Below, piece after piece: positions 1,296-58,957 of a stretch of DNA of 64,000 bases (positions within the stretch are counted from its first letter, which is position 1; every line of letters begins with the position of its first letter). This DNA comes from a virus. The notes below the pieces were generated by a model that saw only the letters and a list, made by a program, of their open reading frames with translations, made no database searches and was not told where the DNA came from. The position numbers and the translations under genes were made by a program. Location of the stretch: positions 1 through 64,000 of IMG/VR virus record IMGVR_UViG_3300023440_000004; one strand, given 5' to 3'.

Positions 1296-1359
1296 AAGAC
1301 ACCTCCTCAGTCAATTATAACAAAGGTATTGTAGCAGTACCAACGGACAGGTTGGAAAA

Positions 1360-1927
1360 GTTACAAAGGGTCCGCGCGGTTACACGGGGTTACATTATTA
1401 TTATTGACGGCGGGGCCACAAGAGACGCCAAGGGTTACAAAGGTTACAAAAATCTCTATATTCCAACACCAGTTTTCTATATTAGAATTTTCTAATATGA
1501 GAATGATTCTCATTTGCATTTGCAGCTCCAGAGCCCGTCAATCATATCGATACTCAGAGCGTTACTCAGAGCGGTCGAGGGGGTTGACTTGTTGGCGGGG
1601 TATGGATATGATTACATCGGGGAGGTATGTATGTACGTACATACCTATATATATTATATACGCGATTATTTCCTGTGAGTGAATAATTTTATACGCCCCT
1701 ATATGAGATTATATGAAAGCCGGATTTTTCTGTAACTTTTGTAACCTTGTTCAAAATCAACAAGTTACAGAAAAAACTTTGTAACCGACTTTGTAACCTT
1801 CCTTGGTTTTGTAACCCCCTCAACCAAAACCTCTTTAAAATCAACAAGTTACTCTCTGAGCGACTTTTTGTAGCCCAATTTGGATAACTTATTGATTTTA
1901 AAGGGATCTTGTCGATTCGGGTTACGG
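1360..1927. other. iteron-flanked AT-rich element (candidate replication origin or control region)
   Basis: GGTTACA motif in forward orientation at 1360, 1379, 1389, 1434, 1443. Its complement (CTT)TGTAAC(C) occurs at 1731, 1740, 1780, 1792, 1810. Between them is an AT-rich core with the perfect palindrome GTATGTACGTACATAC (1629-1644) and GAGAATGATTCTC (1499-1511). A 20-bp inverted repeat lies at 1833-1852 / 1884-1903. Confidence 0.4.
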
Positions 1928-1961
1928 ACCTGCCAAAAACAATCAGAAACAATAAGGCCCG

Positions 1962-3080
1962 ATTGTTCACTGGCAGTTAACAATTACAATCCTTTTGCTA
2001 CCGAAATCCCGGCAATCGTTGCCGAACATGCAACAATCATGCCTAGAATTTGGGGCACTTTGCGGCAATGGTTGCCGGCCAGCGCCCTCTCTCCTCGCGT
2101 CGGGTGTCGATCGGGGGCGAACCTGCGGTTAAAGGCCATCTCACACCCCGTCGGTGCTCCTTTCAGGGCGGATTCCGCCTAAGCGCCCCTCTCGCCGCGT
2201 CTGAGCTTGGTAACGGCCCTGGGACGGCTCTGGGCCTGCTACCGTCATCAGCGCCCCTCTCGCCGCGTCTGAGCCGGAATCAGGGGCATAACTGGGGATA
2301 AAGGCCCTCTCACTTAGCGTCGATACCAAAATCTGGGCCGATAGACCCCGACTGTTCACCAATAGTGGACAATCGGGGTAAATACCGGGAAAGACTCGTG
2401 CAGTTGCGCCGTCAGATCCAGAATCAAGGTGCCGGTTCGGCCGGAAATAGCCGCGATTATTCGCCGTCGTCTGACAATCAGGGCCTTGGACGACCTGAAA
2501 TAGCCCTATCGCACGTCCAACCGGTGACAATCGGGTCAAAAAAGCCTCGATTGTTCGCTATCGGTTAACAATCAGGACTCCATGCTTGCTGGCGGTTGGC
2601 AATCTGGGCCAGAATCAGGGGCAATCCTGTGACAAAAGGCCAATCTTGGCGCGCCAGAGCCTGGGTCTGGGCGCTAAAAACCCCGTTTGTTTCCTAATGA
2701 TTGCCAATCCGGGCATATATGTGCCCGTCAGAACCCGGAGTAAGGTGACAATCCTGGGGGATTTGGCCAGATTGTTCGCTATCGGTTAACAATCAGGACT
2801 CCATGCTGGTCCAAAAGGCTTCGATTGGGCCGTGGCGGGCGGCAACCGGGGCCAGGACCAGGGGCAAACTTGGCCATTCCAACGTTTGGTGACAACCGGG
2901 CGCCTCTTGCCGGCGTCAGGTTCTCAAGACCCCGTTAACAATCGGCCGAAAATAGACCGATTGTTTGCTATCGGTTAACAATAAGAACCTCGGGTTCGTT
3001 GGCAGCCAGATGGCACTCCAGTCAGCGTCGATTGACAATTTGCCTGAGGCCCTAGGTATTGTTCATAGGTAGTGAACAAT
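1962..3080. repeat. array of six 23-bp palindromic sites ATTGTTC-N9-GTTAACAAT within about 200-bp degenerate tandem units
   Basis: Sites at 1962-1984, 2351-2373, 2550-2572, 2771-2793, 2960-2982, 3058-3080. A 38-bp segment GATTGTTCGCTATCGGTTAACAATCAGGACTCCATGCT is identical at 2549-2586 and 2770-2807. Many extra (G/T)ACAATC half-sites are present. Confidence 0.75.
2081..2323 (+). repeat. five phased direct repeats (about 24 bp, consensus GCCCTCTC-N5/6-GCGTC)
   Basis: Copies start at 2081, 2132, 2182, 2250, 2301, giving spacings of 51, 50, 68, 51 bp. Copies 3 and 4 (2182-2206 and 2250-2274) are identical: AGCGCCCCTCTCGCCGCGTCTGAGC. Confidence 0.7.
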
Positions 3081-3188
3081 AGCCGCCAGAACCTCGGGGC
3101 AGACATGTGGCATCCTTGTCCTCAAGGACAGAGGGTATTAGTGAGTGAGTTGGTAGGTGCCTATCAACTTACTTAAAAGGAGAACACC

Positions 3189-3890
3189 ATGAGCGAACTG
3201 CGTTTGTTCCTAGAAACTTTTCGTGCTGAACAACTTATAGCTATTCGGGAAGCACTTACCTTCGAATCCGGAAGCTGCGAAGTCAGCTTCCGAGTCGGCA
3301 ACCGGCTCGTCACTCGGCGTATCGTCATGCCGGTCGCCGAACGAACTGTTTTGTCGGTCCGTGGCCTCAATGGAGTCGCTCACTCAGTCCGGGATACGGA
3401 ACCCGGACTGAGTGACTTTGCCAAATCCGTTACGGATTGGGCAATGGACGTTTTGTCCTATCCAGCTCAGGCTTTCGAGCCTGAGGAGAATGGACTCGAA
3501 TCGCCGGCCAAACAAGCTATAACGGAGCTGGAAGGACAGCTCCGAGACCCGAGAGCCATCAAACTACTGAAAAATTCTGGCCTCGGACATCAGTCCGAGC
3601 ACCGGCCCTCTGAGCCGGACCAAATCCGTCTAGAGGCCGCCGCATTGCGGTGGCTGCTCGGGAAACTGATAGCGTTTGCCGAGGACGATCGGACAGACTT
3701 AGCATACGTCAGATCCCAACACGTCCGACGCGCGTTAGACCGCGCCGGATTGAGCCTCCCAGCCTTCCGGGAGGCGCACCAACAGGCTCTCCAGAGCCTG
3801 TTGGAGAGCGTCGAGCCTCCGTATTGGGAGCTCGATGATCTCCTCATTGCGCCCGACACCTCGTCGGTGGACCACCGCTACTCAGAATAG
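3189..3890 (+). CDS. hypothetical protein (233 aa), first gene of the rightward block
   Basis: ATG 3189 with AAAGGAG upstream. Clean long ORF followed by stem-loops and a terminator. No motif recognised. Confidence 0.8.
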   Translation: MSELRLFLETFRAEQLIAIREALTFESGSCEVSFRVGNRLVTRRIVMPVAERTVLSVRGLNGVAHSVRDTEPGLSDFAKSVTDWAMDVLSYPAQAFEPEENGLESPAKQAITELEGQLRDPRAIKLLKNSGLGHQSEHRPSEPDQIRLEAAALRWLLGKLIAFAEDDRTDLAYVRSQHVRRALDRAGLSLPAFREAHQQALQSLLESVEPPYWELDDLLIAPDTSSVDHRYSE

Positions 3891-4077: not shown

Positions 4078-4275
4078 ATGGAAGTAACAGAGACTTATAT
4101 TTCCTATGATGAGCTTTTGCGTCGGGCTGAGATTCGGCCTGGCGTCATTAGAGATTACGTCATCGATAAGTGCGGGTGCATCTGGGCACCTGAGTTTTGG
4201 GATGGATCTACTTTCTATGAGGGATTCTACCTTGACAGATGCCCGCAGTGCGCCGAGGAGGTATACTACGATTAA
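4078..4275 (+). CDS. small Cys-containing protein (65 aa), possible zinc-binding
   Basis: ATG 4078 with GAAGGAGAGG upstream. CGC...CPQC cysteine pairs are present. A terminator follows. Confidence 0.7.
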   Translation: MEVTETYISYDELLRRAEIRPGVIRDYVIDKCGCIWAPEFWDGSTFYEGFYLDRCPQCAEEVYYD

Positions 4276-4281
4276 TCCCTA

Positions 4282-4316
4282 CCCCCCGTCCCAAGCATGG
4301 GCGGGGGTTTCTTTTT
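4282..4316 (+). terminator. intrinsic terminator (sequence-related to the one at 3901)
   Basis: CCCCCGTCCC / GGGCGGGGG stem followed by TTTCTTTTT. Confidence 0.7.
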
Positions 4317-4412
4317 GGCCGGGTCCTTAGCAATATGGTACCTACGGGTCCCATACTGGGCTTTAGCAACGTTAAATCCGAAGTTGGGGGTGTGGTGGAG
4401 AGGGTGGTCATG

Positions 4413-4682
4413 TTTTACAACCCCACCCACAACCACAACCACAACCACAACCACAACCTCACCCACAACCTCACCCACAACCTCACCCACAACCTCACTC
4501 TCAACCCTCACTCTCAACCTCACCCACAACCTCACTCTCAACCCTCACTCTCAACCTCACCCACAAAATTAGTGTGGTTTTTACCCACAACCCCACCCAC
4601 AACCCCACCCACAACCACAACCCCACCCATAACCACAACCCCACCCATAACCACAACCCCACCCACACCCACACCCACAATC
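4413..4682 (+). repeat. G-free C/A-rich microsatellite-like tract (top strand)
   Basis: No G from 4413 to 4571 (159 nt) and from 4578 to 4682 (105 nt). Built of CACAAC, CTCACCCACAAC, CTCACTCTCAACC and CCCCACCCA(C/T)AACCACAA units. The complement has GGG/GGGG runs spaced 1-4 nt apart. An ORF from ATG 4410 to 4754 is also open through it. Confidence 0.85.
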
Positions 4683-4724
4683 GATTTATATCAGCTATAT
4701 GTTGTACCATCCCCACCTAGGGAC

Positions 4725-4754
4725 CATCTGAAGGAACTGGCCGAGAAGGTGTGA
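4725..4754 (+). repeat. 30-bp direct repeat, copy 1 (identical to 5429-5458)
   Basis: CATCTGAAGGAACTGGCCGAGAAGGTGTGA. In both copies it is read as HLKELAEKV-stop. Confidence 0.9.
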
Positions 4755-4765
4755 GCCTCGAAAAA

Positions 4766-4828
4766 CCCAATCAAGTGTTGATCCGATTTATATTTGTGGT
4801 ATATTTATTATCTCCACACTTGATTGGG
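4766..4828 (+). promoter_or_regulatory. sigma70-like promoter enclosed by a perfect 13-bp inverted repeat
   Basis: CCCAATCAAGTGT (4766-4778) and ACACTTGATTGGG (4816-4828) flank TTGATC (4778-4783), a 16-nt spacer, and TGgTATATT (extended -10, 4797-4805). The site lies 33 nt upstream of the KilA-N start codon. Confidence 0.5.
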
Positions 4829-4837
4829 AATTTAACG

Positions 4838-5458
4838 ATGGCAAAGACTGATTTTAAAATGACGGTACAATTTCTGAAAGGCGAGGTTCTCGCCACGACG
4901 AAGACCCACATGATCGACCTGCGACGTCTGTTCGATGTCGGGAACCGTTACCGGGGCGACGAGGATAAGCCCAGCCTCCGTATGGAGTCCTGGCTGGCTC
5001 TTCAACCCACCAAAGAGTTCATTCAGCGGGTGTCCGATCATATCGGACGTCCTGCGTTGGAGACCAAGCGAGGCAGGAACGGCTCCACTTGGGCGCACCT
5101 GCTGGTTGCCCTGGACGCAGCTATGTACCTGTCACCCTCAATGAAGCTGGAGGTGTTGGACACCTTCCTCAACCAGCGTATCCTCGACCTGCGGGACGAC
5201 TCTGCGAACAGGTTCATCGACCTGAACGCCGCATTGGCGCTGGCCGCTGAAGAAACGTTCGGAAAACCCACACACCGTGGACATTACACGACCATAGCCC
5301 GTATCATCAGGGACCGGCTTGGCGTGACCGATTGGAATCTGGCGGATGCGGCCACGCTGCGTGAGCGGGCTCGAATCGAGGAGACACTGACGACCATGCT
5401 CAAAGCCGGTGTCGTTCGTGATTGGGATCATCTGAAGGAACTGGCCGAGAAGGTGTGA
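4838..5458 (+). CDS. KilA-N domain DNA-binding protein
   Basis: Starts at MAKTDFKM, an internal ATG of track ORF 4751..5458. SWLALQPTKEFIQRV...GRNGSTWAHLLVALDAAMYLSPSMKLEVLDTF matches the KilA-N pattern (GTWxHxxLAxxxAxWLSPxF). Confidence 0.6.
   Translation: MAKTDFKMTVQFLKGEVLATTKTHMIDLRRLFDVGNRYRGDEDKPSLRMESWLALQPTKEFIQRVSDHIGRPALETKRGRNGSTWAHLLVALDAAMYLSPSMKLEVLDTFLNQRILDLRDDSANRFIDLNAALALAAEETFGKPTHRGHYTTIARIIRDRLGVTDWNLADAATLRERARIEETLTTMLKAGVVRDWDHLKELAEKV
5429..5458 (+). repeat. 30-bp direct repeat, copy 2
   Basis: Identical to 4725-4754. It forms the last 9 codons plus the stop of the KilA-N gene. Confidence 0.9.
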
Positions 5459-5461
5459 CGG

Positions 5462-7960
5462 ATGCTATATACCCTCGACTTCATCGAAGCCTCCCAACCT
5501 TGGCGCAAGGTCATCATCAAGCGCGGCGGTTCCCTGGAGATCAACAACCCGAAACCCTCCTGGCGCGTCACGTCCTACCGTGAGGAAGCCAACGACCTCC
5601 GCACCGTCTATAAACACATACTCCACCATGCCGACAGGGGCCGTGGGCTGCTTCGGGGTAACTTGAAGAAGCCTCTGGACGACGAACCTCGGGCCGGTAA
5701 GGTGGCATCCGACGCCAGAACCAGGCTCCTGGTATTCGACGTCGATGGGACCAGGACGACAGACGACCCGCACGAGTTCATCACCGGCGTCCTGGGTCTG
5801 CCCGACACCGATGCGATCTTCATCTACACCAGCTCGTACCGGATCAAGGAGGGGCTTCGGTTCCTGGCCCTGATCCCGCTGGCTGACCCACAGCCCTGGC
5901 AACGCCTGAAGGACCTCGTGTGGTGGCTCCAGGTATCGAACCCGCTCCTGAGCGCCGAGACGAGGCTGGACGTATCCGGCTCCGTCCTGGTCCCACCGAT
6001 AGATCTGGCGTCCTGTGTCCCGTCGCAAGTTTTCACCATAGCGGCGCCGAAGTTCGCCCCGTCGGGCCTGGACCCGTTCAAAGACCTGCCGAACGCCAGG
6101 TATGTCTACCATGAGGGGGCTAAGCCGTATCTGGACATAATCCCGTTGCTGCCGAAGGACAGGACTGAAATCGCCGAAGCGAAAGCGGCGCTGTTGACCC
6201 AGTTGCGTGCCGAGTCCGGCTATCGGACCAAAACCACTCCCGCGACCCAAACGTCGGTGGAAAGTGACGGTTCGGAGTGGACGTTGGTAAAGGACCCGCC
6301 GCCGGCGGAGGTTACGGAGGTGAAAGACTGCGGGCGGTATGTCCGGCTCAACCTGAACGGCGGGGACTCGGAAGCTTATTGGCACCCGAAGGATAAGCTG
6401 GCGTTCCTGTACTCCTTCAAGGGGATGGTCAAGTATCCGATGGAGAAGATCGTCCCGGAGTACTACATGTCCCTCGTCCAACAGCGCCGGGACGAGTCGG
6501 AGCGCCGCATGGCGGAGGCGATGGCCAAGCCCGCCGACAACGAATCGTCCGGGGAAGCGCCGGTCCCGATGGTGGTGCTGGAGGAATCGACTGAAGAGTA
6601 CCTGTGCTTCGAGCTGACGGCCGAAACGACATGGAAGGACGTCGTGCGGTTCGTGAAGAAGTCCAGCGCCATGTCGTGGCTGGCCACGCTCGGGTACGAC
6701 ACCGAGGCGGCCAAGAACCCTGTCCTGATGCGCTCCGTGTTCGACCCCAGCATCGGATTTCTGGACATCCGTACCCGGCGTATCAACCGCTTCACGCCTC
6801 CGGACGAACCTCACACGTTGCGGGAACCCGCAACCACGAGTAATCTCCCGCCCCAGTTTCTGAAGTTGCTCAGCCACGTTCTGGCCTATGACGACGAGAT
6901 GATCGAGACGATGCTGGATTGGCTGGCGTTCGTGTATCAGCGTCGGTGTCCGCCCCATTCGGCATGGCTATGGCACGGTACCACGGGTACAGGGAAGGAC
7001 CTGACTTGGCGGATATTGCGCTGGACGTTCGGTGAGGCGTATTGTAAGGTCGTCATGCCGCACCAGTTGGTGGAGAACTTCAACGCTTGGGTCGAGGATA
7101 CGAATCTGGTGTTCGTCAACGAGATCGACAGCCGGGTGTTCCAGCGGACCAACCTGACGGCGCGGCTGAACGATTACATCACCGCCGACAAGGTCGCCGT
7201 TCGGCGGATGCGCCAGGACTTGTACGAGGTCCCGAATTTCGCGGCGTATATCTTCACATCCAACCGCATGGACGCCATAGAACTCCCGCCCCACGACCGT
7301 CGGTTCCACGTCCCACCTCGCCAGGAGACGAAGCTTATCAACGTTCTGGGTCAGGACGAAATCGAGTTCCTTGTCTCGCCGCCGCCAGAGTTCATCTATG
7401 ACCTTCGCGCTTGGTTCCGGGCCAGGGTGTTCGACGAGGTCCGAGTACGCCGGCCGGCGATGACCGAAGCCAAGATTACGCTGGCGGATGCCGCCCAACC
7501 GGCGGCTCAGCGGGTGGTCGGCTATTTGCGCTACGGGTCGTGGGACGAGTTGGTGAAGGTGCTGGACCCGCTCGATAGGGTGATGAACGCCAAGGGGTTG
7601 CCCGACGAGGCTATGGTGCTGGCCGATATGTTCCAGAGTATCCTCCGCCACGCGGAGACGGCCCGATCCGGTCACGTGCCAGTGTCGATGACGGAGCTCA
7701 GGGCTCTGTTCGCCGTCACGTGCGACCGGGAGATCGCCCACATGGCCCCGGCGAAGTTTCGCCAGTGGCTGCTTCATCAGGGGCTTCACGAGGCGGACAA
7801 GTCGGTGGTCAAGAAACGCCTCAAGAAAGCGATTCGCGGGGTGGTGTTTCCTGTCCCACGGCCATCGGATACGCTCGACCGCGTACGGGAGCATCTGACG
7901 GGGCTGGGGTATTTGGCCAAGGGTAAGACTGGCAAAGTCGTCAATCTGCACGAGAAGTAG
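5462..7960 (+). CDS. bifunctional primase-polymerase / SF3 (D5-like) helicase
   Basis: 832 aa. The N-terminal LLVFDVDG is an AEP-type DxD motif. C-terminal motifs are Walker A GTTGTGKD, Walker B LVFVNEID and motif C IFTSN, followed by RRFHV. Confidence 0.75.
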   Translation: MLYTLDFIEASQPWRKVIIKRGGSLEINNPKPSWRVTSYREEANDLRTVYKHILHHADRGRGLLRGNLKKPLDDEPRAGKVASDARTRLLVFDVDGTRTTDDPHEFITGVLGLPDTDAIFIYTSSYRIKEGLRFLALIPLADPQPWQRLKDLVWWLQVSNPLLSAETRLDVSGSVLVPPIDLASCVPSQVFTIAAPKFAPSGLDPFKDLPNARYVYHEGAKPYLDIIPLLPKDRTEIAEAKAALLTQLRAESGYRTKTTPATQTSVESDGSEWTLVKDPPPAEVTEVKDCGRYVRLNLNGGDSEAYWHPKDKLAFLYSFKGMVKYPMEKIVPEYYMSLVQQRRDESERRMAEAMAKPADNESSGEAPVPMVVLEESTEEYLCFELTAETTWKDVVRFVKKSSAMSWLATLGYDTEAAKNPVLMRSVFDPSIGFLDIRTRRINRFTPPDEPHTLREPATTSNLPPQFLKLLSHVLAYDDEMIETMLDWLAFVYQRRCPPHSAWLWHGTTGTGKDLTWRILRWTFGEAYCKVVMPHQLVENFNAWVEDTNLVFVNEIDSRVFQRTNLTARLNDYITADKVAVRRMRQDLYEVPNFAAYIFTSNRMDAIELPPHDRRFHVPPRQETKLINVLGQDEIEFLVSPPPEFIYDLRAWFRARVFDEVRVRRPAMTEAKITLADAAQPAAQRVVGYLRYGSWDELVKVLDPLDRVMNAKGLPDEAMVLADMFQSILRHAETARSGHVPVSMTELRALFAVTCDREIAHMAPAKFRQWLLHQGLHEADKSVVKKRLKKAIRGVVFPVPRPSDTLDRVREHLTGLGYLAKGKTGKVVNLHEK

Positions 7961-7966
7961 AGGCTT

Positions 7967-8449
7967 ATGGTGGCCAGGACCAGAAGGGCCAGGACCAGAA
8001 GTCTGACCGGGACCTTGCTGACCGAAAAGGAGTCGCTGTTTCTGGCGCGTCTTGCCGAGGGGATGACACCAGCGGCAGCCGCAGCGGCCGCTGGGTACGC
8101 CAATCCGGCGTCGACTGCGAGGGCGTTGATGCTGCGCCCCCACATCCGTGACGAAGTGGCCAACATCCAGGCCAGGCTGCATGACGAACTGGGGGTATCC
8201 CGCGTCAAGGTGCTGCGTATGCTGAACGAGGCGTACCAGTTGGCGTTGGAGAAGGAAGACCCGAAGGCGATCGTGCGTGTTGCGGCGGAGATCAACAAGA
8301 TGTGCGGGTACTATCAGCAGGGGGACCAGGGCGGTGGCCAGGTGATCGAGCGTCTTCAGCGGGCGCTCGATCCTGACCCTGTCCAGGGGCTTCCGGACGA
8401 GGAGTTGATGAAACTCGCCAACGGCGTCCCGCCCGATGAAGAGCCTTGA
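7967..8449 (+). CDS. terS: terminase small subunit
   Basis: 160 aa. LTEKESLFLARLAEGMTPAAAAAAAGYANPASTARALMLRPHIRDEV is a typical TerS HTH pattern. It lies immediately upstream of, and overlaps, the large terminase. Confidence 0.7.
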   Translation: MVARTRRARTRSLTGTLLTEKESLFLARLAEGMTPAAAAAAAGYANPASTARALMLRPHIRDEVANIQARLHDELGVSRVKVLRMLNEAYQLALEKEDPKAIVRVAAEINKMCGYYQQGDQGGGQVIERLQRALDPDPVQGLPDEELMKLANGVPPDEEP

Positions 8450-30940: not shown

Positions 30941-33900
30941 CCAGGATCGTAAGCGCCCTTTCGGGGTCAGGGACATCCTTCAGGCGAACCTGGCCCGAGA
31001 TATGATGAACTACGCTGACCCGGCCCGGCGGCGGGCTCTGAACCAGGAGCTTGCCGGGGATTCCGATTTTGCGCTCGGGGTGCGGGCCGGACTGGGTCGT
31101 ACCATCGCCGGGCTCCAGGCGCTGACAGGATTTACCGGCAGCGCGCAGGACACCCTGAGCACGCTCGAAACGCTGCCCACTCCACGGGTTACGGACTACC
31201 GTAAGATCAAGTCCCTGAGCGACGCGATCGACTATATCCAAGGGCTCGCCGGGTCATCCGCCCCGCAATCGCTAGCCACCTTGGGGGCGTTGGTTGCCAA
31301 CCCGGCGTTGGGACTCGGCGTTAGCGCGGCGATGTTTGGCGGCGAGAACGTCCTCGAACAGATGCAGCGTGGCGTCGCGCCAGAAGACCTCGACCGTGCC
31401 AGGGCGCTGGGCACCGGGGCGATCCAGGCGATCCCGGATGTCATCGGTGCTGGCGTCATCGCCAAGAGCTTGCGAACGATCGGTAGGGCGGCCCGTACCG
31501 GCGGGGTAGCCAAGACTATCGCTAAAGAAGCGGCCAAGGGTGCCGTCGGCGAGGGCCTTCCGGAGCTGTTCCAGGAAGAACTAACGATGCGCCAGGCTAG
31601 CGGACTGCCCGGCGCCCGTGAGCTAACCCCAGAAGAAGTCGCCCGACGGCGATTGGACGCGCTTATCGGCGGCGCTGCGCTTGGTACGGCGATGGGTGGC
31701 GCCGCCGGCGTCGGGCACGCCGCCGCGAACGCCCTTTCCGCCCGTGCTGTGCCGGAACAACCCATGTCGGCTGGCGCTGGCCCAGAAGGTGGCGTAGGCG
31801 GCCAGTCCGCTACCGAGACGGTCGTACCGCCAGAGCCCCCGCTCGGTGCCCAGGGGCCGGCAGCAGCCCCGACGCCGGATGTGCAGGTCCGTCCGATGGC
31901 CGAGGGACAGGCTCCGAAGGTCATGGGTATGACGTACCCCATGCCAAAGGACCTGAAGGTGGGTAAGCGAGAGGACTCGACGACGTTCGACGAGATCTTA
32001 GCTGGACGCCGCACGGCGACTACAAGGGCTACCCTTCCCAAAGGAGTGGAACCCGGACAGACCGTCGTGTTTACGTCAGGCGATGGTCGTAAGTCGGGAA
32101 CGTACGTCGTCCAGGATATCATCCCGTCTCCTCTGCGGCCCATGTTTCACAAGCCGCTCAAGGAGTGGACCGGCGAGGAGCGCAAACGGGCGGCGGAGTG
32201 GGCACGTCGTGAGCAATGGAATCCGTTTGTCATCAAAAAGAAAGCCGAGGCGGGTGACAAGGCGGCCCAAAAGCTTTGGGATCAGGTTGCCGGCCCCAGA
32301 GCCAAGCAGATTATTTTCGCCCCCATCGAAGCCACTCAGCCGGCCACTCAGCCGGCCGCTCAGCAACCTGCGGTAAAGTTCCGCTGGAAACAGCACGAAA
32401 CCCGCACGGTTCCCAGCGAGTTCATCTCGGCACCTTTGAGGAAGCGAGTCGCCCCTACTGGAGATAGCGCTCACGCCCTGTTCCTTGGAGCTGAGACGGG
32501 AGCGGTCACGGCCGCCGCTTCGAAGGTTAAACCGGGCGATACGCTGTACGAACGCACGTTACCGGACGGGCGGGTCGAAAGACTTGTCGTCGAGGACAAG
32601 GCCAAGAAGACCGCCTGGTTGACCGAACAGATGCTCAACGCCCGTACACCCAAGGAGCAGCGGGCGGCCGTCGTTGAGTTCTTGCGGACCGACAAGGGCG
32701 CCAAGGTGGCGAATCGATTGGGCTTGAATCCTAAGTTCGTCGCCAAAGTGCGGGCCGGAGACCGAACGGCGGTCGATCTAGCGGCCCGGATGTTCAACCG
32801 GCACACGGCCCTTTACAAGGTACGCCGTGAGATTGCCAGGCAGACCCAGCCTCAGACCCAGGCTCATCCTCAGACCCAGGCTCAGCCTCAGACCCAGGCT
32901 CAGCCTCAGACCCAGGCTCAGCCTCAGACCCAGGCTCAGCCTCAGACCCAGGCTCAGCCTCAGACCCAGGCTCAGCCTCAGACCCAGGCTCAGCCTCAGA
33001 CCCAGACAACCCAAGGCGTCGCACGTATCGTGGCGGCGGCCAAGCCTCCGTCACGATACGTTCAGAAGGAGCTGACCAAGGCGCGCGTCGCCACCAAGAT
33101 TCTCGCCCCTAGGATCGATCGAGAAGGGGCCGACCAGTCCTTCGCCGTTCGTCTCGCTAAGGCGGCCCCTGACGAGGCTCGGGTCGTTCCGGGATCGAAC
33201 GCCGATAATGTGGCGAAGGACGACGTGGTGTACATCTCCAATCCGGGGGCGTCTCGGTTCAGCGACAAGGCAAAGGCGCGGGAGTACGTCCAGAAGTACG
33301 TCGTGCCGACGGTCAAGCGTATCTTCGCCAAGGGCGCTTCGATCGTCATGGACTCTCCGGAGCACGCCAACCGCACACACAACCGGGAGACGGAAGGCAT
33401 GCTGTCGAACATTCTGGAGAACCCGGACGAAGCTATGCGGGTGTTCGGCGGCGAGGTGGTCCGTAAAGACCTTGGCAATGGGGCCGTCCAGTATTCCCTG
33501 CGCCCCCGTAGGCAGGCGCCAAAACCACCACAGCCCAAGCCACAGCCCAAGCCACAGCCCAAGCCACCAGCCAAGCCGCGGCCGCGAGCGCGTCGGCGGG
33601 TGACGAGCGCTGAAGCCGAAGCGTCCGGCGTTACCGTCGAGCGCATCGCTTCGGACGAGCCTTCGGCGCAGACGGAGCCGGAGCCCGCCAACAACCTGGT
33701 CGAAACGCTGTCGTCACGGGCTACCGAGTACTTGCGCGGTATCTCTAAAGCGGCGGTCGATCGTATCATCAACAGCGTTGTGTCCGTCGAACCGGACACC
33801 AAGCTGGAGTCGCTGATACGGCAAAAAACATTACCGATTTCGCGCGAGGTGGCGACGGCTCGCCTTCGTGCGTTAGCACAGCACCTTGCGGAAGCGGAGC

Positions 33901-58741: not shown

Positions 58742-58957
58742 TCACTCTTCAGGAGAATCGACGGTGACCCCCATTTCTTGTAACGCTGCGACGATCCGAT
58801 AGATGGTATCGTAGCGGGGAGAAGTACTCCGCTTTCCACTACGGATGAGCCGGAGTGCTTGCTCGGAGAGGAAGGTTCGATCCGCCAGTTTAGACAGACG
58901 AACCTGTTTCATCGCCTGGCGGACGACGTTCAATTCTGGAAGATGGTATCGATGCAT
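58742..58957 (-). CDS. XRE/Cro-type HTH regulator (71 aa)
   Basis: AAGGAGG RBS. VRLSKLADRTFLSEQALRLIRSGKRSTSPRYDTIYRI is an HTH pattern. Confidence 0.65.
   Translation of the reverse strand: MHRYHLPELNVVRQAMKQVRLSKLADRTFLSEQALRLIRSGKRSTSPRYDTIYRIVAALQEMGVTVDSPEE

Follow-up and report, generated by a model that had tools for sequence, protein, structure and literature searches.

Lytic tailed phages rarely give more than 1 kb to non-coding DNA, and the question raised by the locus described here is what such a stretch, filled with copies of one palindromic sequence, might do in a phage genome. The locus lies at 1962–3080 of a 64-kb window (IMG/VR record IMGVR_UViG_3300023440_000004, positions 1 to 64,000), the whole stretch of DNA that was analysed, whose coordinates are used throughout. 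It holds about ten palindromes of the type ATTGTT-N11-AACAAT and about ten additional half-sites, and is very probably an array of predicted duplex-DNA binding sites that builds one cooperative, wrapped or looped complex. The array has a probable origin with early promoters on one side and the conserved promoter of the rightward genes on the other, and by analogy with known systems it is read, tentatively and at somewhat less than even confidence, as an accessory control platform for origin use and rightward transcription.

Palindromic sites and their arrangement

With at most one mismatch allowed, ATTGTT-N11-AACAAT has six matches in the window (1962, 2015, 2550, 2771, 2960 and 3058), all of them inside 1962–3080, where 0.05 would be expected and none of 100 shuffles reaches six. 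Relaxing the arms to at most 3 mismatches in 12 positions gives ten sites in 1900–3100, with 2351, 2456, 2686 and 2920 added to the strict set, against a background of 0.175 per kb outside the array. A preliminary description made from the letters of this DNA had counted six palindromes with the consensus ATTGTTC-N9-GTTAACAAT; the family itself is confirmed, its copy at 2351 is real but degenerate (2 mismatches), and the consensus had been miscounted, the elements being 7+7+9, which amounts to 6-bp arms around an 11-bp spacer. Alignment of 20 half-sites yields the consensus RGTkAACAATCrGG, and the full palindromic site extends to about 31 bp, CCGATTGTTyAC-N5-GTkAACAATCGG; at 2351 the extended arms (CCCCGACTGTTCAC / GTGGACAATCGGGG) display the whole 13–14-bp half-site. 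The pentamer ACAAT occurs 20 times in 1900–3120, 15 of these on the + strand, versus 1.3 expected from an even spread of its 66 occurrences in the window. The typical module of a strong site measures 53 bp and consists of a half-site, about 17 bp with an A-tract, and then the palindrome (Table 1). The upstream half-site, (G/T/A)ACAAT(C), stands 22–23 bp ahead of the palindrome at five of the six sites first listed, and none precedes 2351, although every site had been credited with one; weak xGCAATC half-sites surround site 2686 (2600, 2622, 2641 and 2705). The last palindrome ends 109 bp before the ATG at 3189, much as first described (about 110 bp), and its centre is 29 bp upstream of a promoter-like motif. 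The HpaI-type sequence GTTAAC is also concentrated here, five of its seven window copies falling in the array (1976, 2564, 2785, 2934 and 2974) and only 2 outside it, versus about 10 predicted there from base composition by a rough estimate.

The region is non-coding and was made by degenerate duplications. Successive sites are 53, 336, 105, 94, 136, 85, 149/189 and 98 bp apart, and blastn self-hits in the array (E from 2e-10 to 4e-12) align degenerate duplications at offsets of 169, 189–221, 335 and 411 bp. Among the details reported before, the identical 38-bp block (2549–2586 = 2770–2807), within which the palindrome at 2550–2572 sits, was found again, as was the homology of the DNA between sites (2590–2629 versus 2833–2872, 80%). 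The idea of a long-period tandem repeat thus holds as far as the duplications go, but units differ in length and a second family of repeats intervenes at 2080–2324, so that uniform units of about 200 bp do not fill the 1.1 kb. This second family has a period of about 51 bp, two of its copies being identical over 25 bp (2182–2206 = 2250–2274). Copies of CTCTCAC..CGT that resemble it by eye are present at the left end (1–60) of L189, a contig on which they lie upstream of the gene for a homologue of the 233-amino-acid (aa) protein encoded from 3189.

Open reading frames (ORFs) in the array start with TTG or GTG, have no ATG and no Shine-Dalgarno sequence, look random and show no protein conservation between units; the sole peptide common to units, RLFAIG*, is encoded by the palindrome itself. 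The earlier statement that the 1.1 kb is non-coding is upheld on these grounds, and coding mini-genes were rejected for the lack of ribosome-binding sites and ATG, in contrast to the real MKLK... paralogues of another phage (L187). The palindrome arms are conserved as the sequence ATTGTT/AACAAT, the variants at 2351 and 2456 lose pairing, and no covariation is seen; the hairpins are weak and AT-rich (-4 to -12 kcal/mol) with no T-run, and the copies at 2351 and 3058 have folding z-scores of -4.7 and -4.9. Because the arms are kept with no compensatory changes and the stems are weak, the sites are read as duplex-DNA targets of a protein and not as RNA or DNA hairpins. On the same features, intrinsic terminators and hairpins like repetitive extragenic palindromic (REP) elements were rejected, and CRISPR-like or integron-like arrays were rejected on misfitting spacing and motifs and the absence of an integrase.

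Helical register of the sites

Eight of the ten palindrome centres fall at phase 0.86–0.95 of a 10.5-bp repeat, and the spacings among these eight (53, 336, 105, 94, 136, 85 and 189 bp) correspond to 5, 32, 10, 9, 13, 8 and 18 turns within about 1 bp; the only strong palindrome out of register is that at 3058, one third of a turn off. The same periodicity is observed for CAATC on the + strand (n=15, R=0.74, best period 10.50 in a scan of 9–12 bp, Monte Carlo p=5e-5), for CAAT on the + strand (n=22, p=2e-5) and for the A-tracts (n=11, R=0.73, best period 10.54, p=0.0016), one of which lies beside most sites, this being a statistic that over 100 turns is highly sensitive to the period and of which several tests were made. 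Since unit lengths differ by about 10, 21 and 32 bp, the register does not come from simple copying and has been kept through insertions and deletions. Sites in a 10.5-bp register have their recognition sequences on one face of the helix, the DNA of the array is predicted to be intrinsically curved, and in-phase sites together with bends are what would be expected of a protein that binds cooperatively and loops or wraps the DNA. The common register of sites, half-sites and A-tracts strengthens the initial proposal that many dimeric-binder sites form a looping or spreading nucleoprotein complex.

Table 1. Coordinates of the array, its sites and the features and genes discussed with it.
Feature	Position	Strand	Description
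Probable origin and early-promoter region	1359..1875		Eight TTTGTAACC copies around an AT-rich core
Palindromic site 1	1962..1984		ATTGTTCACTGGCAGTTAACAAT, perfect arms, phase 0.90 (in register)
Degenerate site	2015..2037		ATCGTTGCCGAACATGCAACAAT, 1 mismatch, phase 0.95 (in register)
Second repeat family	2080..2324	+	Five direct RGCSCCyCTC-N4-8-CGTC copies: 2086, 2137, 2188, 2256, 2306
Degenerate site	2351..2373		ACTGTTCACCAATAGTGGACAAT (ACTGTT...GACAAT), 2 mismatches, phase 0.95 (in register)
Degenerate site	2456..2478		ATTATTCGCCGTCGTCTGACAAT, 2 mismatches, phase 0.95 (in register)
Core module	2526..2572		Half-site GACAATC 2526-2532, A6 tract, palindrome ATTGTTCGCTATCGGTTAACAAT 2550-2572
Weak site	2686..2708		TTTGTTTCCTAATGATTGCCAAT, 3 mismatches, phase 0.86 (in register)
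Core module	2747..2793		Half-site GACAATC 2747-2753; palindrome 2771-2793 identical to the 2550 copy
Core module	2934..2982		Half-site GTTAACAATC 2934-2943, A-tract, palindrome ATTGTTTGCTATCGGTTAACAAT 2960-2982
Last module	3034..3080		Half-site GACAAT 3034-3039; palindrome ATTGTTCATAGGTAGTGAACAAT 3058-3080; phase 0.29
Promoter-like motif	3098..3141	+	GGCAGACATGTGG...CAAGGACAGAGGGTATTAG; recurs upstream of 233-aa-family genes in L190
5' leader hairpin	3144..3173	+	Abuts the Shine-Dalgarno sequence of gene 3189
First rightward gene, 233 aa	3189..3890	+	Candidate binder or regulated gene
Primase-helicase	5462..7960	+	DUF5906 / SF3 helicase; candidate binder
Small terminase subunit	7967..8449	+	Candidate binder for the rival terminase-recognition (pac) reading

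Conservation of the site and amplification of the array

In HMMER searches against 1.84 billion representatives the 233-aa protein has only three relatives, its family comprising four clusters, and one of these relatives sits on L190, a 61-kb phage contig (k141_13537 of ENA ERZ27262647). The proteins of L190 are 47.5% (primase), 52% (small terminase), 68% (large terminase) and 83% (a 143-aa protein) identical to those of the window, and its genes are syntenic (237-aa gene, small gene, primase, terS, terL, adaptor). GATTGTT-N11-AACAATC occurs twice in L190, versus 0.01 expected: at 6617–6651 (CCGCCGATTGTTTAC-TCCTG-GTTAACAATCGGCGG), 275 bp upstream of the 237-aa gene, and at 4104–4128 (TGATTGTTTCC-AAATA-AGAAACAATCA), at the end of the last late gene. 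The early region of L190 lies entirely between these two palindromes, which are 2.5 kb apart, and includes an AT-rich stretch and short iterons of its own; the latter read TTTTGTAGT in L190 and TTTGTAACC in the window, the iterons having diverged while the palindrome is unchanged. As the same palindrome is present in 1–2 copies at the matching place in L190, the site is, on this comparison of sequences, ancestral to a small clade and amplified in the present genome by tandem duplication from 1–2 to about ten copies, and the pair of a 1–2-copy relative and a phage with about ten copies represents a natural experiment on binding-site amplification.

More remote relatives lack the site. Neither the palindrome nor a comparable array was found in about 180 primase relatives (25–30% identity) or in 80 intermediate relatives retrieved through the 143-aa protein, and no large non-coding region near the primase gene of KPP25. 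The distribution is therefore one in which L190 keeps the site in 1–2 copies, about 260 remoter relatives are without it, and the array occurs only in this genome. The contig of L001 (from SRR29593759), whose primase is 50% identical, stops 232 bp upstream of the primase gene, so that its control region is outside the contig, and L189 carries the closest homologue of the 233-aa protein (39% identity by phmmer, 33–36% by blastp and MAFFT). IMG/VR searches with the primase or the 233-aa protein singly gave no close relatives, and a search with the alignment of the 233-aa family gave nothing.

An exact-pattern scan of IMG/VR for the palindrome returned single chance-like matches and one unrelated array, that of L280 (3088–3333), a contig of no shown kinship in which 4–5 tandem intergenic palindromes (GATTGTTATTTTTTTMACAACAATC) have the same outer arms; arrays of TTGTT-N11-AACAA may recur in other phages. 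The repeat cluster of L083 was set aside as coding (coiled-coil proteins), and relatives found through MoxR (L183, L185, L187 and L314) as other phage types. In L187, whose MoxR is 38% identical, tandem paralogous mini-genes of 46–58 aa (MKLK...) occupy 1–1690 upstream of the MoxR gene and represent long-period repeats that are truly coding.

Candidate binding proteins

The candidate binders are, in order of preference, the primase-helicase, the clade-specific 233-aa protein, the small terminase and a host protein. The primase-helicase matches TIGR01613, the C-terminal domain of P4-family primases, at E=1.9e-7, a weak match of 30 bits versus a cut-off of 109 bits. The gene of the 233-aa family lies directly downstream of the palindrome in both site-bearing genomes, and is followed by a gene of 66–80 aa and canonical terminators in the three relatives with downstream DNA. 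The 233-aa protein has no recognisable DNA-binding domain in family scans and its structure model is unusable (predicted local distance difference test, pLDDT, 44); the model of the adjacent 65-aa protein (pLDDT 71.5) has a winged-helix-like topology with a best structural match that is not significant (E=0.66), and neither protein matches a family. The N-terminal helix-turn-helix of the small terminase is nearly identical in the window, L190 and L001, which fits an unchanged site, although the motif is generally conserved in this fold. A host factor is a possible binder. The KilA-N protein, which the preliminary description had listed among the proteins to be considered, is an unlikely one, because L190 keeps the palindrome with no KilA-N called in the 17.6 kb that cover the region.

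Comparison with known systems

Several known systems provide functional parallels and leads, with no demonstrated homology to those of P4 or E1. The satellite phage P4 has a cis replication region (crr) and an ori, both bound by its alpha primase-helicase. In the P4 record, crr consists of two 120-bp direct repeats, each with five TGTTCACC sites in both orientations, and a 10-mer, GATTGTTCAC, is common to crr and the window site at 1962. The window array resembles crr in being non-coding and in having its sites embedded in long direct repeats (here degenerate duplicated units), and the phage, like P4, encodes a primase fused to an SF3 helicase; the alpha protein of P4 is composed of primase, SF3 helicase and C-terminal winged-helix DNA-binding domains (PMC2777425). 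Unlike crr, the window has its core ATTGTT/AACAAT in a fixed 23–31-bp palindrome and not in TGTTCACC octamers, with TGTTCAC in only three of about 20 half-sites, ACAAT/ATTGT invariant and the CAC part variable (CAC, CGC, TGC, AAC, CAT); the array is also 3–4 times longer and lies beside the AT-rich region, whereas that of P4 is 4.5 kb away, and homology to the DNA-binding part of the initiator was not detected in the window primase-helicase. Inverted ATTGTT hexamers are also the recognition sequence of papillomavirus E1, another SF3 helicase (PMC1779811). In the window they stand 11 bp apart, whereas those of E1 overlap or are separated by 3 bp.

Further functional parallels of the control-platform reading are the family of repeats in oriP of Epstein-Barr virus (EBV) and the long control region of papillomaviruses with its E2 sites and the ATTGTT origin palindrome of E1, which are gene-free regions of 0.6–1 kb with palindromic dimer sites, adjoin an origin at which a hexameric helicase is used or recruited, and act on replication and transcription. 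The window array is likewise gene-free, packed with palindromes and beside a probable origin; those viruses are eukaryotic, however, their proteins have no detectable relation to the window proteins, and a lytic phage has nothing that corresponds to their part in tethering or segregation. Copy-control iterons (P1 incA, R6K, RK2 oriV) are in-phase initiator sites beside an AT-rich origin whose copy number varies between relatives, but they are short direct repeats 20–23 bp apart, whereas the window palindromes are long and 50–340 bp apart, and the window already has a separate family of short iterons at 1359–1875. At lambda cosB, with its R sites and IHF bend, and at SPP1 pacL/pacR, phased sites on bent DNA stand at the start of the packaging and morphogenesis genes and are bound by an oligomer of a helix-turn-helix protein. 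The window sites are similarly repeated and phased, and the small terminase helix-turn-helix is conserved along with the site, but these terminase sites span at most 200 bp within or beside terS, whereas the window array spans 1.1 kb and is 4.9 kb off.

Plasmid centromeres (F sopC, R1 parC, P1 parS) have tandem dimer-binder sites in helical register that form one higher-order complex, and the window sites are tandem, palindromic and in register as well, though in long and irregular units and with no gene for a partition NTPase or a ParB/ParR-type protein found among the window ORFs that were scanned. Pfam scans, which took in about 70 ORFs and thus most of those in the window, found no integrase, recombinase, ParA/ParM/TubZ, ParB or CI-type repressor; the sole hit of the Cro/C1 type is a sub-threshold helix-turn-helix match in a 71-aa ORF at 58742–58957, about 7 kb off around the circle. 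Given these absences from the ORFs scanned the phage looks lytic, and the partition centromere and the immunity region that had first been suggested are both unlikely. The operator set of a temperate phage was rejected because the scans of these ORFs found no CI/Cro pair, integrase or recombinase, that sub-threshold match being the only one of its kind.

Proposed function and alternative explanations

In the control-platform reading, a sequence-specific dimeric protein would occupy the strong palindromes and then, cooperatively, the weaker in-phase half-sites, and its binding would wrap or loop the 1.1 kb into one large complex situated between the origin and early-promoter region (1359–1875) and the rightward promoter (3098–3141). 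Such a platform would concentrate the binder beside origin and promoter, could govern how the origin is used, through loading or titration of the SF3 primase-helicase, and when rightward transcription occurs; the 233-aa protein, if it is the binder, would act as an E2-like loader or regulator. If confirmed, the locus would provide a tractable bacterial-virus model of the architectural control regions of EBV and papillomaviruses, and would define cis elements for a large, almost uncultured group of environmental podophages (hundreds of metagenomic relatives) whose nearest isolates are KPP25-like phages. A rather unlikely variant is a nucleosome-like particle next to the origin, in which the 1.1 kb would be wrapped on a multimeric phage protein specific to the clade, perhaps that of 233 aa. 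The particle would serve for timing or insulation and keep early replication and transcription apart from the genes for packaging and structure; to our knowledge, no equivalent of such a wrapped array has been described in lytic tailed phages.

Several observations weigh against the control platform. Its binder is known only as a list of candidates, and hhalign of the clade profile versus P4 alpha aligns the SF3 core only (probability 28%), with nothing aligned over the C-terminal domain. The most conserved bases of the sites are ATTGTT and not the TTCACC part of the P4 octamer, and the 10-mer common with P4 may be chance (p about 0.01, estimated after the fact). The register statistics hinge on the exact period, R for palindrome centres falling sharply at 10.4 or 10.6 bp, and the six strict sites alone give p=0.03 at 10.5 bp and p=0.42 when 10–11 bp are scanned. 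The short TTTGTAACC repeat is the better candidate for an origin iteron, and its divergence to TTTTGTAGT in L190 beside an unchanged palindrome is unlike what would be predicted for a co-evolving pair of initiator and site. In L190, moreover, 1–2 copies suffice, so that the array may add little function, and both copies overlap + strand stop codons, those of the last late gene (4103–4105) and of an 88-aa Cys-rich early gene (6639–6641), which makes a boundary or packaging role possible.

That last point leads to the main rival, to which a low probability is given: recognition by the terminase, with the array as a pac site or as the edges of terminal repeats. An oligomeric small terminase on the phased sites would wrap the curved DNA and position the large subunit for the first cut, and the two L190 copies, 2.5 kb apart, would be the edges of a terminal repeat carrying the earliest genes. 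The position of these copies suits it, one coinciding with the end of the last late gene and the other immediately before the middle/late block, as does the place of the array at the head of the gene block containing terS and terL; phased repeats with intrinsic bends are typical of terminase sites (lambda cosB, SPP1 pacL), and the helix-turn-helix of the small terminase stays nearly identical, like the site, among early features that otherwise diverged. The array is nevertheless 4.9 kb from terS (array end 3080, terS start 7967), known pac and cos regions do not exceed 200 bp as against 1.1 kb and ten sites, and the conserved AGY...NPA...ARAL motif is general to the Terminase_2 fold and hence a weak sign of shared specificity. 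A purely transcriptional operator array for the 233-aa protein or another regulator, also judged unlikely, would silence or insulate the rightward promoter, roadblock early read-through and delay middle and late expression. It would explain why the last site is only 29 bp upstream of the conserved promoter-like motif, why the array separates the sigma70-like early promoter at 1584–1612 from gene 3189, why the palindrome has a gene of the 233-aa family beside it in both genomes with upstream DNA, and why one L190 site is preceded by an early gene and followed by the promoters of the next unit. The distance between site and promoter is not conserved, however (29 bp here versus 96–180 bp in L190), the other L190 copy occupies a junction of convergent genes and not a promoter, L189, which has the closest homologue, shows different repeats in the 610 bp of upstream sequence available, and the 233-aa protein has no recognisable DNA-binding domain and an unusable model of pLDDT 44.

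Three further explanations were weighed and found less probable still. A sink or decoy for a host DNA-binding protein, which would titrate or recruit the factor after infection at sites of host consensus, is very unlikely: an identical site in two phages whose proteins are 27–68% identical and whose G+C differs by eye, and its amplification in one lineage, would suit it, but about 260 other related phage loci lack the motif, and in an informal comparison by eye the sites of DnaA, IHF, CRP, LexA types, CtrA, parS, the LacI family and LysR (T-N11-A) misfit the ATTGTT arms. Little credence is likewise given to one functional site with neutral minisatellite expansion by replication slippage or unequal recombination. 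L190 manages with 1–2 copies, two units identical over 38 bp point to a recent duplication and several copies are decaying, yet units of 53 to 336 bp stay within about 1 bp of whole turns with phased A-tracts, and neutral insertions and deletions would have scrambled this register; 1.1 kb of dead DNA would also be costly in a 64-kb packaged genome. Least probable of all, and barely credible, is an RNA-level element, with repeated hairpins in the early rightward transcript that would bind an RNA-binding protein, or else a plasmid-type partition centromere. The promoter at 1584–1612 could transcribe the array, the copies at 2351 and 3058 fold with the low z-scores given above, and tandem palindromic sites resemble F sopC; against this, a 10.5-bp register is a property of duplex DNA, the weak AT-rich stems show no compensatory changes and no Rfam match, and the partition genes and integrase are missing from the Pfam scans.

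Neighbouring features

The 1359–1875 region beside the array is probably the origin and early-promoter region on the evidence of its sequence: three TTTGTAACC copies on the - strand (1359–1450) and five on the + strand (1738–1875) enclose an AT-rich core (1450–1737) with sigma70-like promoters, including that at 1584–1612. Three copies of AAAATCAACAAGTTAC in the same region form large inverted repeats. The same build of iterons and AT-rich DNA, with other 8–9-mers, is observed in the distant relatives L012, L035, L049, L070 and L043, where it adjoins primase or early genes.

On the other side of the array, the promoter-like motif has a form common to the window (3098–3173) and to L190 (6816–6900 and 7696–7775), namely GGCAGACA...CAAGGAyAGAG...GGTAT followed by a hairpin at the Shine-Dalgarno sequence, and motif and hairpin precede genes of the 233-aa family and neighbouring small genes. 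Relatives have leader hairpins of different sequence at the same position (TGTTTACGGCC/GGCCGTAAACA in L189), which suggests a distinct promoter class with structured 5' leaders. A sigma54 promoter with enhancer sites was rejected, no GG-N10-GC being seen by eye near 3189. Hairpin promoters of the N4 type, used by a virion RNA polymerase, were rejected as well, since a structural-protein family is all that the 3292-aa virion protein matches.

Genome setting

The gene-free region 1296–3188 (1.9 kb) that contains the array is the divergence point between a leftward and a rightward gene block. The rightward genes run from 3189 to about 49.8 kb and encode, in order, the 233-aa protein, the 65-aa protein, KilA-N, the DUF5906/SF3 primase-helicase (5462–7960) and the small and large terminase subunits, the block also including an SU10-type adaptor, portal, capsid, the 3292-aa virion protein and lysis genes. 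The leftward genes occupy 49.8–64 kb and 1–1295 and include those for a family A DNA polymerase, a PD-(D/E)XK nuclease, an SNF2 helicase, and MoxR and VWA proteins. The window makes up nearly all of a JGI metagenome contig of 64,170 bp, to which two of its proteins are 100% identical. No DNA-level match to the window was found among 50,697 phage records, and neither Rfam families nor tRNAs were found in it. The nearest cultured phages are the Pseudomonas podophages KPP25/phiR18 and Aeromonas phage phiA008, with 36–40% identity in the large terminase and 27% in the primase; no account of genome ends or origins was found in the literature on KPP25-like phages.

Further repeats are present in the rightward block. 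A second gene-free stretch, 4310–4837, harbours a CA-rich tandem array at 4417–4680 (ACAACCTCACCC, about 21 copies), of which the ORF 4239–4754 (HNHNHN..., TTPP...) is an artefact; comparable repeats lie directly upstream of the primase gene in L001 (1–100), whose contig breaks there, and in L190 (8250–8320). The KilA-N gene (4838–5458) is flanked by a 35-bp direct repeat (4721–4755 and 5425–5459, one base differing; GGGAyCATCTGAAGGAACTGGCCGAGAAGGTGTGA) and looks like an inserted cassette; in L001 and L190, gene calling placed no KilA-N gene in the interval from the small genes to the primase. A tandem repeat with an 18-bp unit, CAGCCTCAGACCCAGGCT, with 8.8 copies and 98% matches, is located at 32847–33005 inside the gene of the 3292-aa virion protein, with shorter repeats near it at 32331 and 33528.

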